A DNA stretch of 64,000 nt from Planctomycetota bacterium. Its GTDB lineage: Bacteria; Planctomycetota; UBA1135; UBA2386. The notes beneath the pieces are model-generated. The model was not told where the DNA came from, did not search any database, and was given only the letters and a program-made list of their open reading frames with translations. The stretch is from contig JADJPQ010000004.1 of the NCBI GenBank assembly GCA_016713175.1, forward strand, positions 372,278 to 436,277, given 5' to 3'. Shown here one piece after another: positions 53,200 to 56,100 of the stretch (positions within the stretch are counted from its first letter, which is position 1; the number at the start of each line of letters is the position of its first letter). The position numbers and the translations under genes are program-made.

Positions 53200-56100
53200 T
53201 CAGCGCCCCTTGCCCGGGCGAGCCGCCTTGCCGGCCTTGCCCTTCGCCGCCGCCTTCTTCGCCATCGGTTTGGCCACCTTCGTTGGCTTCTTGGCAACCT
53301 TCTTCGGCGGTGCCTTCTTGGCGGGCTTGGCCGGCTTGGTCGGCTTCTTCGCCACCTTCTTGGTCGGCCTGGTTGGCTTGGCCGCCGGCTTCTTGGCCAG
53401 CTTCTTCGCCGGGGTCTTCTTCGCGGGCTTGGTGACCACCGCTTTCTTCACGGGGGCGGTCTTGACCGGAGCCGGCTTCTTCGCGACCGGAATAACCGCC
53501 GGCGTGGCCGCCGGCGCCGCCACTGGCTTGGACTTCACCTTCACGCCGGGCTTCGGCGCCGCCGCCTTGCCGCCGCCGAGCAGCTTGCGCAACACGGTCT
53601 GCAGGATGCCACCGTTGCGGTAGTAGTCGACCTCGACCGGCGTATCGATCCGGCACAGCGCCTCGAACGTCCGGCTCTCGCCGGTCGTCGCATCGGTCGC
53701 GGTGACCGTCAGCTTCTGCCGCGGCTCCACACTGTCGTCGATCGCCACCGAGAACACTTCGGTACCGGTCAGCCCGAGCGACTCGCGCGTCTGGCCCTCG
53801 AGATACTGCAGCGGCAGCACACCCATGCCGACCAGATTGGAGCGGTGGATGCGCTCGTAGCTCTCTGCCAGCACGAACTTGACGCCAAGCAGGAACGTGC
53901 CCTTCGCTGCCCAGTCGCGCGAGCTGCCGGTGCCGTACTCCTTGCCGGCCAGCACACACAGCGCCGTGCCATCCTGCTGGTAGCGCTGCGCCGCGTCCCA
54001 GATCGCCATGGTCTCGCCCGAAGGCAGATGCTTCGTCAGGCCGCCCTCGCCCTCGACCAGGAAGTTGCGCAGCCGGATGTTGGCGAACGTGCCGCGTGTC
54101 ATCACGCGATCGTTGCCGCGGCGGGCGCCGTACTGGTTGAAGTCCTTCGGTTCGACGCCGTTCTCGATCAGGTAGCGACCCGCCGGCGAGTCCTTCTTGA
54201 TGTTGCCGGCCGGCGAGATGTGGTCGGTGGTGACCGAGTCACCGAGCACCGCGAGTGCACGGACGTTGGCGATGCCGGCGATCGTGCCGACCGTCCGTGC
54301 CATCGTCTGGAAGAACGGCGGATCCTGGATGTAGGTGCTCTTCTGGTCGAACGCGAACAGGTCGCTCTTCTTGGCGGTGATCTTGCGCCACGCTGGCGGG
54401 CCGTCGGCAACGGTGGCGTAGGTCTGCCGGAACGCCTTCGGCGACATGCTCATCGCCATCGCGTCGGCGATCTCCTGCTGCGTCGGCCAGATGTCGCGCA
54501 AGAACACCGGCTGCCCCTGCCTGTCGGTGCCGAGCGGCTGATTGGCGAGATCGATGTCGACCGTGCCGGCCAGCGCATAGGCGACGACCAGCGGCGGCGA
54601 CGCCAGGTAGTTGGCCTTGACGTCGGGGTTGACGCGGCCTTCGAAGTTGCGGTTGCCGGACAGCACCGCGGCGGCGACCAGGTTGCCGTCCTTGATCGCG
54701 GCGGAGACTTCAGCGGGCAACGGCCCGCTGTTGCCGATGCAGGTCGTGCAGCCGTAGCCGATCACATGGAAGCCGACGGCTTCGAGGTGCGGCAACAGGC
54801 CGGCCTTGGTCAGGTAGTCGGTGACCACGCGTGAACCTGGTGCCAGCGAGGTCTTGACCCAGCTCTTTCGCGTGAGGCCGCGCGCCGCCGCCTTCTTGGC
54901 CAAGAGCCCGGCGCCGATCATCACCGACGGGTTGCTGGTGTTGGTGCACGACGTGATCGCGGCGATCACGACGGCGCCATGGCCGATGCTGGCTTCGCTG
55001 CCCGCGACCGTCGCGGTGGCACCCAGTGCCTGCTCGGCCAGCGCGAAGCCGCGCTTGTCGACCGGCTTCTTCAGGCTGGCGGCGAACTCCGGCTGCATCG
55101 CACTCAGCGCCACGCGATCCTGCGGCCGCTTGGGGCCGGCGAGACTCGGCACCACGGTTGCCAGGTCGAGCGAGAGCCGGCTCGTGTACTCGGGCACCCT
55201 GGCGTCGGCGATCCAGAACATGCCCTGCGCCTGATAGTACGAACGGACCAGATCGACGAGCTGCGCATCGCGACCGGTCCGCCCCAGGAACCGGCAGGTC
55301 TCCTCGTCGACCGGGAAGAAGCCCATCGTGGCGCCATACTCCGGCGCCATGTTGGCGATCGTCGCGCGATCGGCCAGCGGGATGTCGCCGATGCCTTCGC
55401 CGAAGAACTCGACGAACTTGTTGACGACGCCGGCCTTGCGCAGGATCTCGGTGACGGTCAGCACCAGGTCGGTCGCGGTCGCGCCTTCCGGTAGCCGGCC
55501 CTTCAGTTCCATGCCGACCACTTCCGGCAGCAGCATGTAGGTCGGCTGGCCGAGCATCACGGCCTCGGCCTCGATGCCGCCGACGCCCCAGCCGAGCACG
55601 CCGAGCCCATTGATCATCGTCGTATGCGAGTCGGTCCCGACGACGGTGTCCGGATAGACGATCGTGTCGTTGCCGTCCTTCTTCGTCAGCACCGCGGTGG
55701 CAAGGTACTCGAGGTTGACCTGGTGCACGATGCCCATGCCTGGCGGCACGACGCGGAAGTTGGTCAGCGACTGCTGGCCCCACTTCAGGAACTCATAGCG
55801 TTCGCGGTTGCGCTCGAACTCGAGGTCGAGGTTCTGTTGCAGCGCTTCCTTGCTGGCGAACGCGTCGACCTGCACCGAGTGGTCGATCACCAGATCGCAC
55901 GGCACCAGCGGGTTGATCTTGTCGGGATTGCCCCCAAGGCGCCGCATCGCCGCGCGCATCGCCGCCAGGTCGACGACGCACGGCACGCCGGTGAAGTCCT
56001 GCAGCACGACGCGCCCAGGCAGGAACGGGATCTCGACCTGGCCGGCGGTCGAAGGTCCCCAGTTGGCGATGTTCTTGACATCGTCGGTCGACACGACGTA

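Follow-up and report, generated by a model that had tools for sequence, protein, structure and literature searches.

A polycationic, histone H1-like C-terminal tail fused to aconitase A in a clade of Planctomycetota, a candidate tether to cellular polyanions

The acnA gene found in the stretch of Planctomycetota DNA analyzed here (64 kb, referred to as the window) encodes a complete aconitase A that is prolonged, in the same reading frame, by a Lys/Ala/Pro-rich tail resembling in composition the C-terminal domain of histone H1. The fusion is real and conserved across one Planctomycetota clade, and it is the composition of the tail, and not its sequence, that is under constraint. The arrangement is probably a translated and selectively maintained fusion in which, by analogy with experimentally studied proteins, the tail would serve as an electrostatic tether to cellular polyanions, with nucleic acid as the likeliest partner.

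AcnA is contained in a minus-strand open reading frame (53200..56868) and starts at the ATG located at 56268 (MPGTNPF...). The product of 1022 aa is identical to the NCBI protein MBK8097915.1, 'aconitate hydratase AcnA [Planctomycetes bacterium]', encoded in a 700-kb MAG contig. A first-pass annotation of this DNA had described an aconitase frame running past the canonical C-terminus, and this was borne out, with complete AcnA and tail in one frame and a junction (...AAG CTG CTC GGC GGC GGC AAG GCG...) without stop codon. The two protein strings quoted in that annotation were found in the ORF translation, although its estimate of about 135 residues for the tail has to be lowered to 125 (898-1022; 53203-53577), and the junction, which had been placed at about 53605, lies at 53577/53578. 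A terminator and promoter scan near acnA gave nothing informative.

Table 1. Coordinates of the acnA gene and its parts in the window.
Feature	Position	Strand	Basis
acnA complete coding sequence, 1022 codons plus TGA stop (53200-53202)	53200..56268	-	ORF list and sequence
Canonical AcnA core, residues 1-897, four aconitase domains	53578..56268	-	Profiles, structures, alignment, AlphaFold2
Polycationic C-terminal tail, predicted to be disordered, residues 898-1022, 125 aa	53203..53577	-	Composition, codon use, AlphaFold2, homologues
Degenerate in-frame tandem repeats within the tail	53313..53412	-	Tandem Repeats Finder

The protein belongs to AcnA according to the curated NCBIfam equivalog TIGR01341, with a score of 1352.6 bits (cutoff 945) and end-to-end coverage of the model (residues 19-897 on profile positions 2-876 of 876). 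Two Pfam domains were found, PF00330 (Aconitase, residues 77-568, 549 bits) and PF00694 (Aconitase_C, residues 698-823, 137 bits). The IRP1/cytosolic aconitase structures 3sn2 and 2b3x, with similarities of about 1088 bits (1088 for 3sn2), align with residues 36-896 and stop 2 residues further. The [4Fe-4S] cluster ligands C441, C507 and C510, also aligned to IRP1, and the active-site motifs, including SSRDW and DSHTT, were invariant in an alignment of 46 sequences, 36 of them tail-bearing. AlphaFold2 predicted a folded core with its last helix at residues 888-897. The core is a complete, and presumably catalytically competent, [4Fe-4S] aconitase A.

The tail contains 38 Lys, 30 Ala, 22 Pro, 12 Val, 8 Gly, 8 Thr and 3 Arg residues and lacks Asp and Glu, resulting in a net charge of +41 (fractions of 30% Lys, 24% Ala, 18% Pro and 0 Asp plus Glu); its addition raises the isoelectric point of the protein from 6.2 to 9.6. 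Lysine accounts for 4% of the residues in the AcnA core and for 3% in the other high-GC3 ORFs of the window, so that its excess in the tail is far beyond chance. The GC3 value is the same in tail and core (0.91), and the Lys codons of the tail, AAG in 36 out of 38 cases, are used as in the core. Considering that Lys is enriched about tenfold despite a GC content of 68% in the window, and that the change from AAG to GAG (Lys to Glu, a GC-raising transition) is always available, we infer selection on charge. No secondary structure was obtained for the tail in the AlphaFold2 model (pLDDT about 40-50), and it is predicted to be intrinsically disordered. Tandem Repeats Finder detected repeats with periods of 9, 12, 33 and 45 nt, all multiples of 3, in 2-3 copies with 77-90% matches, the element KKVAKKPTK, present twice, being an example of these degenerate units. 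Such repeats are consistent with lengthening and shortening of the tail through slippage or duplication.

The likeness to H1 and to bacterial H1-like proteins proposed in the first-pass annotation held in part. It stood for the composition, which is that of H1, Hc2 and AlgP, and the Lys/Ala/Pro-rich disordered C-terminal domain typical of H1/H5 was recognized in the tail from its composition and the AlphaFold2 model. It did not extend to the winged-helix domain of H1/H5, since no Pfam domain besides the two aconitase ones, and thus no Linker_histone globular domain, was found in the protein, nor to the regular KPAA array that characterizes the AlgP/PhaF repeat domain, which Tandem Repeats Finder did not detect in the tail. 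The tail did not match any Pfam or NCBIfam model (none at E ≤ 0.1 for Pfam). When the tail was used alone in a homology search, none of 8000 word-sharing candidates reached E ≤ 0.001, as a consequence of the low-complexity correction, and a common ancestry of the tail with H1, Hc2 or AlgP therefore cannot be claimed.

Cationic tails were present in 58 of the best 120 homologue clusters, that is, in the window protein and in 57 further clusters, with lengths from 14 to 171 aa and net charges between +3 and +59 (at least +7 in 57 of the 58). The search for AcnA orthologues with the same tail in related genomes, suggested in the first-pass annotation, was thus positive, and the sources were independent NCBI, JGI, ENA and Logan assemblies, all of them uncultured MAGs or metagenomes, with one tailed cluster recovered full length from many samples. 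The frame comprising AcnA and tail was also found in the DNA of eight loci (L001, L002, L083-L086, L163 and L164). In a neighbour-joining tree of the core, the tail-bearing proteins constitute a single Planctomycetota clade with nested losses. The tail has been lost or shortened several times, outright in one protein (P0038) and one subclade (P0049-54/P0058), and to 14-46 aa or 24 aa in other lineages, and is therefore dispensable in some lineages. Its length changes fast through in-frame insertions and deletions, as illustrated by two loci with near-identical cores, L084 and L085, whose tails of 108 and 24 aa share identical beginning and end and differ by one 84-aa in-frame deletion.

The tail sequence is not conserved and cannot be aligned between orthologues, whereas the composition is kept, with a K+R fraction between 0.28 and 0.57 (median 0.34) and medians of 0.01 for D+E and 0.00 for hydrophobic/aromatic residues, at core identities down to about 69%. 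The spacing of Lys residues peaks at 1 and 4, and the enriched unit is AKKP/KPA, with 75 occurrences of AKKP compared with 16.6 ± 3.8 in shuffled tails and 149 of KPA compared with 58. The (S/T)PxK motifs were not enriched in the tails (19 compared with 16.2 ± 4.0 in shuffles). A terminal Arg is kept in 43 of the 49 long tails. Matches to Pfam HC2 (PF07382) were obtained for 8 of the 46 aligned sequences (best E-value 2.2e-7), but not for the tail of the window protein, and precomputed ones exist for P0003, P0021, P0027 and P0045; all these matches are compositional, reflecting low complexity.

The tail appears to be specific to aconitase. Besides that of acnA, no Lys/Ala/Pro-rich stretch was found in the six frames of the 64-kb window, and no other such tail in 2.46 Mb of related loci, about 0.2 Mb of it from the tail-bearing clade, so that a lineage-wide habit of tailing many proteins is not supported. 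The contig scans returned mostly distant AcnA genes among the matches listed, with at least 6 close loci, and the tail was absent from 78 of the 80 loci from GTDB species, Phycisphaerales with 69-71% GC among them. Within the top 150 family representatives, the full-length ones that were checked, namely those picked out by a motif scan or because their match ended before the protein did, were also tail-less, and the sole tail belonged to a fragmentary sequence of the tail-bearing clade, P0280. An apparent Holophagae tail (L046/L125, with a tblastn match to residue 967) was spurious, because its ORF closes one residue beyond the usual AcnA terminus and none of the frames further downstream is rich in Lys. 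The tail is not a by-product of high GC content, since tail-less relatives are equally GC-rich (0.70 in L081, 0.69 in L082, 0.69-0.71 in Phycisphaerales) and Lys codons oppose the GC bias. Regarding the gene surroundings, the genes downstream of acnA differ between relatives, including tail-bearing loci, and the only conserved neighbour, a divergently transcribed lipoprotein gene, is also present beside tail-less genes; no link to nucleic acids was found in the neighbourhood.

With respect to its role, the C-terminal helix of the core runs straight into a tail of degenerate (P/A)AKKP(A/V)-type units, predicted to be disordered, which may act as a sequence-independent electrostatic tether keeping the enzyme on cellular polyanions, the likeliest partner being nucleic acid in the form of nucleoid DNA or of RNA/ribosome-rich material. 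That the tail has a constitutive affinity for nucleic acid or some other polyanion is physically very plausible and agrees with analogues studied by experiment, DNA, RNA and polyphosphate being indistinguishable in this analysis. The tail would thereby add a constitutive, non-specific affinity to a family already binding RNA and DNA, and the benefit could be the localisation or partitioning of aconitase to the nucleoid or RNA, possibly with the protection of nucleic acids or post-transcriptional regulation becoming dependent on the TCA cycle, iron or redox state. It is doubtful that aconitase A in this clade goes as far as being truly associated with the nucleoid or with RNA granules, as a bacterial equivalent of yeast Aco1 with evolutionarily 'hard-wired' moonlighting. 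If this were true, an H1-like tail would hold an abundant redox- and iron-sensing Fe-S enzyme on the chromosome or RNA, and the compaction and protection of the nucleoid, or the fate of mRNA, could respond directly to the TCA-cycle, iron or oxidative status.

Other explanations were considered. A sequencing or assembly error that removed a stop codon or shifted the frame before a separate histone-like gene could be conceived in a long MAG contig, where isolated indel errors may occur, and several frames are open over the tail region, among them a hydrophobic plus-strand ORF (53126-53623) that might be the real gene. This artefact is effectively refuted, because 57 further clusters from independent projects and assemblers share the identical continuous frame, which was also seen at the DNA level. 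The fusion with an adjacent histone-like gene was discarded too, as acnA in tail-less relatives does not adjoin an H1-like gene; L081 and L082 carry CarboxypepD_reg or CDO_I downstream, without any Lys/Ala/Pro-rich ORF. The plus-strand ORF is an antisense shadow, with aberrant codon use (Leu encoded by TTG in 17 of 18 cases, compared with 5 of 86 in the core) and overlapping the conserved AcnA C-terminus.

Concerning the ligand, a disordered tail with positive charge will bind polyanions of any kind, and therefore polyphosphate or acidic lipids are also candidate partners. It is rather unlikely that the partner is a polyanion other than nucleic acid, in the first place polyphosphate, for granule localisation or regulation of the enzyme by polyphosphate, or, as a second option, acidic membrane lipids. 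The charge of +41 without acidic residues suits polyphosphate as well as DNA; the H1-like AlgP (net charge +55) was found through polyphosphate-granule proteomics, its KPAA domain being required for granule spacing (PMC9239181), and the histidine ammonia lyase of Trypanosoma cruzi, a metabolic enzyme, uses its Lys-rich C-terminal region for the electrostatic binding of polyphosphate, which inhibits the enzyme (PMC8561398). However, DNA is the ligand of most of the bacterial Lys/Ala/Pro tails that have been studied by experiment (PhaF, TopA, Ku), nothing in the window ties acnA to polyphosphate metabolism, and membrane lipids are disfavoured by the lack of a hydrophobic or amphipathic element in the tail (hydrophobic/aromatic residues about 0, Pro every 4-6 residues). 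A tail devoid of specific ligand, either an extension that favours solubility or stability or acts as an 'entropic bristle', or a near-neutral, tolerated product of stop-codon loss and repeat slippage, seems improbable. The unalignable sequence, the wide range of lengths, the repeated losses, the 84-aa deletion between near-identical genes and the weakly repetitive DNA would fit it, but neutral drift at 68-75% GC should erode a tract with 30% Lys and bring in Glu, Asp and stop codons, whereas the charge density, the near absence of acidic residues and the AKKP-type units persist at about 69% core identity, and the terminal Arg is retained. A maintained tether, probably to nucleic acid, is the preferred reading.

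Literature searches for an aconitase fused to an H1-like tail found no description, in agreement with the first-pass annotation, which was not aware of one. That an H1-sized polycation has been kept on AcnA through extensive divergence points, on independent comparative grounds, to an advantage of bringing aconitase to a polyanion. The natural variants with tails of 0, 24, 70, 125 and 170 aa, together with a 1-897 truncation, offer a simple test system. Bacterial H1-like tails, known earlier on DNA enzymes and on granule proteins in Actinobacteria and Proteobacteria, are thereby extended to a central metabolic enzyme and to Planctomycetota.

Compared with the aconitase A/IRP1 family, the enzyme has the full-length AcnA core with invariant Fe-S ligands, but known members end 0-3 residues past the ...RK(L/M)x helix, whereas the Planctomycetota enzyme continues into the tail. 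Aconitases are textbook moonlighting enzymes, and IRP1 and bacterial apo-aconitases (apo-AcnA/CitB) bind mRNA, the cluster-free form of the IRP1-type RNA-binding aconitases recognizing specific stem-loop RNAs. In that family, contacts with nucleic acid are made by the opened catalytic cleft, or through a partner protein, and only once the cluster has been lost, while here the polycation is separate and permanently attached. RNA binding and presence in an RNA-degrading complex are known for aconitases (PMC4245959, PMC7463775), aconitase being part of the RNA degradosome in Caulobacter (PMC4245959), and yeast mitochondrial Aco1 binds and stabilises mtDNA independently of catalysis (PMC7463775). 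Aco1, which packages mtDNA as a nucleoid protein, is likewise a TCA-cycle aconitase, but it belongs to the mitochondrial branch and has no Lys/Ala/Pro tail, and a DNA association is putative in the Planctomycetota enzyme.

The tail and the H1 C-terminal domain are alike in size (about 100-125 aa), charge, Lys content (about 30-40%), Ala/Pro richness, scarcity of acidic and hydrophobic residues and disorder (H1 properties from PMC9239181 and general background), the disorder being predicted for the tail, but the tail has neither a winged-helix domain nor (S/T)PxK enrichment, and the resemblance is compositional, homology not being demonstrable. Chlamydial Hc2 (PF07382), with Lys-rich pentamer repeats that vary in number between strains (PMC2848022), is a stand-alone nucleoid condenser, unlike a tail fused to AcnA. 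AlgP and PhaF also combine a functional module with an H1-like Lys/Ala/Pro disordered domain that tethers polyphosphate or PHA granules to DNA; the KPAA domain of AlgP binds DNA and positions polyphosphate granules (PMC9239181), and the C-terminal domain of PhaF ties PHA granules to the nucleoid (PMC3574117). Their net charges, +55 for AlgP and +35 for PhaF, are similar to that of the acnA tail, but their arrays are long, regular and of four residues, whereas in the acnA tail the AKKPx units are pentamer-like and degenerate and repetition at the DNA level is weak, and the cargo is a soluble enzyme instead of a granule protein. The T. cruzi histidine ammonia lyase shares a basic C-terminal extension on a metabolic enzyme, with polyanion binding controlling its localisation and activity (PMC8561398), although its polyphosphate is that of eukaryotic acidocalcisomes and its basic region is short and without Lys/Ala/Pro repeat. 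The Streptomyces and Mycobacterium proteins TopA, Ku, HupB/HupS and DdbA similarly carry lineage-specific, length-variable PAKKA/AKKP C-terminal extensions on a canonical protein, and these Lys-repeat tails raise DNA affinity or processivity in experiments (PMC5714199, PMC3553676, PMC3643593), as in Streptomyces TopA, where the Lys repeats stabilise enzyme-DNA complexes (PMC5714199), and in Mycobacterium smegmatis Ku, where the PAKKA repeats modulate DNA binding (PMC3553676). The actinobacterial hosts are already DNA-acting proteins, whereas the host of the acnA tail is a central metabolic enzyme of a different lineage, the Planctomycetota.

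The aconitase core of the window protein belongs to the AcnA family by every criterion open to testing. The Pfam domains Aconitase and Aconitase_C were located at residues 77-568 and 698-823, respectively, and the NCBIfam AcnA equivalog TIGR01341 scored 1352.6 bits (cutoff 945). This profile (positions 2-876 of 876) terminates exactly at residue 897, and the IRP1/cytosolic aconitase chains 3sn2 and 2b3x, which align to residues 36-896, stop 2 residues later; therefore, residue 897 is the normal AcnA-family C-terminus and residues 898-1022 are extra. The exact protein is present in NCBI as MBK8097915.1 (Planctomycetes MAG, 700-kb contig), and the tailed proteins are publicly annotated simply as aconitate hydratase AcnA.

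Coordinates of the aconitase gene, its neighbours and other features of the window and of related loci
Feature	Position	Strand	Remarks
ORF containing aconitase A	53200-56868	minus	from the ORF list
acnA start codon	ATG at 56268	minus	1022 residues in total
acnA stop codon	TGA at 53200-53202	minus
Cationic tail, residues 898-1022	53203-53577	minus	beyond the normal AcnA end
YCII-domain protein (121 aa) and ECF-type sigma factor with C-terminal DUF6596 (425 aa)	51407-53067	minus
Divergent lipoprotein-like neighbour	56377-57099	plus
Divergent lipoprotein-like neighbour in relatives	L163:9181-9867; L164:9181-9912; L081:9101-9826; L082:2884-3549
LigD-type protein, phosphoesterase and primase-polymerase domains	41620-43758	minus	non-homologous end-joining repair
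PSCyt2/PSD1 (DUF1549/DUF1553) protein	15579-18464	minus	typical of Planctomycetes
Ser/Thr kinase with TPR repeats, 1059 aa	10954-14130	plus

The tail is composed of 38 Lys, 30 Ala, 22 Pro, 12 Val, 8 Gly, 8 Thr and 3 Arg residues, with no Asp or Glu, and thus carries a net charge of +41; the calculated pI of the protein rises from 6.2 without the tail to 9.6 with it. The first-pass annotation had estimated about 135 residues, and the measured length is 125. Its reading of a frame that runs through the canonical C-terminus was correct, as the junction (AAG CTG CTC GGC GGC GGC AAG GCG) contains no stop. Third-position GC is 0.91 in both tail and core, the preferred Ala and Pro codons are the same, and 36 of the 38 Lys codons in the tail are AAG. 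Lys makes up 30% of the tail versus 3-4% of the core and of other high-GC3 ORFs in this 68% GC window, and a six-frame scan of the 64 kb revealed no other tail-like stretch. An opposite-strand ORF (53126-53623, plus), which uses the same third positions as the tail frame, was rejected as a real gene: Leu is encoded by TTG in 17 of 18 cases versus 5 of 86 in the core, which identifies this ORF as an antisense shadow.

The first-pass annotation had suggested looking for the same tail in orthologues, and the same AcnA plus tail arrangement was found in 58 of the 120 top-ranking homologue clusters (66-82% identity; window protein included), which were drawn from NCBI, JGI, ENA and Logan assemblies and all come from uncultured organisms. 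These tails are 14-171 aa long (median 92), with a K+R fraction of 0.28-0.57 (median 0.34), medians of 0.29 for Ala, 0.14 for Pro and 0.01 for D+E, and a hydrophobic/aromatic fraction of about 0; net charge ranges from +3 to +59, being at least +7 in 57 of the 58. The other clusters end 0-3 residues past RKLL. Contig scans provided at least six close acnA loci, and a continuous core and tail frame was found in the DNA of eight loci (L001, L002, L083-L086, L163 and L164), while cluster P0046 (997-999 aa) was recovered on many contigs of different samples. Sequencing error or a missed stop is excluded by this continuity in independent assemblies and loci. In the short-tail cluster P0056, NCBI labels most members Planctomycetota and others Neolewinella sp. 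or Hyphomicrobiaceae, probably owing to mis-binned contigs in the MAGs of the latter two. Separately, the 1422-aa cluster representative P0163 is an aconitase homologue interrupted at the GCTTC cluster-ligand motif by an insert that begins C-IAEGTPVLMADGT; judged from its sequence, the insert resembles an intein (Hint block A) placed at the cysteine that serves as Fe-S ligand.

A neighbour-joining tree built from the core placed the tailed proteins in one clade. Also in this clade lie P0038, which stands alone without a tail, a tail-less subclade nested within it (P0049-54 and P0058) and a sister group whose tails are short, at 14-42 aa (P0055, 56, 59, 62, 64 and 65); the tree carries no support values and the loss count is therefore approximate. 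The tail was absent from 78 of 80 GTDB species loci, including other Planctomycetota, Chloroflexota and Thermodesulfobacteriota, and the Phycisphaerales loci are tail-less at 69-71% GC. Among the top 150 matches of an exhaustive HMMER search over 1.84 billion cluster representatives, a C-terminal motif scan (matching only 36 of the 150) and inspection of those whose match stopped before the protein end revealed no cationic C-terminal extension except in P0280, a fragment from the tailed clade. A tblastn match reaching query residue 967 in the Holophagae-like loci L046 and L125 (positions 12650-12900) is a low-complexity alignment artefact: the aconitase ORF ends 1 residue past the canonical end, with no Lys-rich frame beyond.

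The tails of different clade members defy sequence alignment but share a grammar. Compared with composition-preserving shuffles, AKKP occurs 75 times (16.6 +/- 3.8 expected), KPA 149 times (58) and KKP 112 times (57), and basic residues are most often spaced 1 or 4 apart, corresponding to degenerate AKKPx pentamers. The window tail DNA contains weak tandem repeats of 9, 12, 33 and 45 nt, every period being divisible by 3. In two metagenomic loci with nearly identical cores, tails of 108 aa (L084, 4189-4560) and 24 aa (L085, 6690-6810) differ by an in-frame internal deletion of 84 codons, and both retain the first 13 residues (APAKAAPAAKKAA at the start) and the last 4 (GRSR). Despite an overall Arg content of about 4%, Arg is the last residue in 43 of 49 long tails (RR 21, KR 7, GR 6, SR 4, AR 3); the window protein, whose tail end lies at 53203-53214, closes with ARPGKGR. 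Of the 9 short tails, 8 finish with KK. Such endings may be a conserved anchor closing an internally expanding repeat, or a functional C-terminal motif. The near lack of Glu and Asp appears to be the strongest sign of selection on tail charge, because an AAG to GAG transition is always possible and is favoured by GC pressure.

No small histone-like gene adjoining acnA was found in the tail-less relatives L081 and L082, and the 3' genes differ among the tail-bearing loci: in the window, YCII and the DUF6596-bearing ECF sigma factor follow acnA directly and are probably a regulatory pair, not kept beside acnA in relatives; the corresponding genes are a Kelch/beta-propeller protein in L163 and an NDH-2-like oxidoreductase in L164. 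Hence, the tail most likely originated by reading-frame extension and repeat expansion, and not by gene fusion. The lone conserved neighbour is a divergently transcribed protein of about 230-245 aa with a lipoprotein-like N-terminus (LLAAC) and no Pfam match, 40-45% identical between loci, which adjoins tailed and tail-less acnA alike. Elsewhere in the window, no ligase domain was detected in the LigD-type ORF and a Lys-rich tail like that of mycobacterial Ku is absent throughout; the PSCyt2/PSD1 protein and the Ser/Thr kinase fit the Planctomycetota origin.

AlphaFold2, run with a 46-sequence alignment, predicted a folded core (pTM 0.76) with a last helix at 888-897 and no secondary structure for residues 898-1022 (pLDDT about 40-50), consistent with an intrinsically disordered region. 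The window AcnA is an Fe-S enzyme without signal peptide and is presumably cytoplasmic, and its proline-punctuated, non-hydrophobic tail would bind polyanions. Aconitases have turned up on nucleic acids more than once: IRP1 with iron-responsive-element RNA (the 3sn2 complex), aconitase in the Caulobacter degradosome (PMC4245959) and yeast Aco1 on mtDNA (PMC7463775). Bacterial tails of this type that have been studied by experiment, namely those of PhaF (PMC3574117), AlgP (PMC9239181), TopA of Streptomyces (PMC5714199), Ku of M. smegmatis (PMC3553676) and DdbA (PMC3643593), all serve in non-specific DNA binding or tethering. On these grounds, the most likely and best explanation would be constitutive electrostatic tethering, by which the tail would hold AcnA on nucleic acid, which may be DNA or RNA.

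The main rival is that the tail binds polyphosphate, with which AlgP also associates in granules (PMC9239181) and which is bound by another metabolic enzyme, the T. cruzi histidine ammonia lyase (PMC8561398). It is less likely, because of the compositional constraint on the tails, that the tail acts physicochemically without any ligand or is just a tolerated extension, readings that would suit the repeated losses and large length changes.

The first-pass annotation had described the tail as H1-like, which stands for composition; the tail lacks the globular domain of the linker-histone family, so it is not a member, and homology is not demonstrable. The regular KPAA array of AlgP and PhaF is absent from the window tail. 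Matches to Pfam HC2 are inconsistent: the window protein has none, and in the alignment of 46 sequences, 36 of which bear tails, 8 match with E down to 2e-7. By composition, the tail would act like those of H1 type, AlgP/PhaF and HC2. Full-text literature searches brought up no report of an aconitase so extended, in agreement with the earlier remark that its author was not aware of a description of the fusion. Lineage-specific H1-like polycationic tails on bacterial proteins are already known; their presence on a central metabolic enzyme, and in Planctomycetota, is new.
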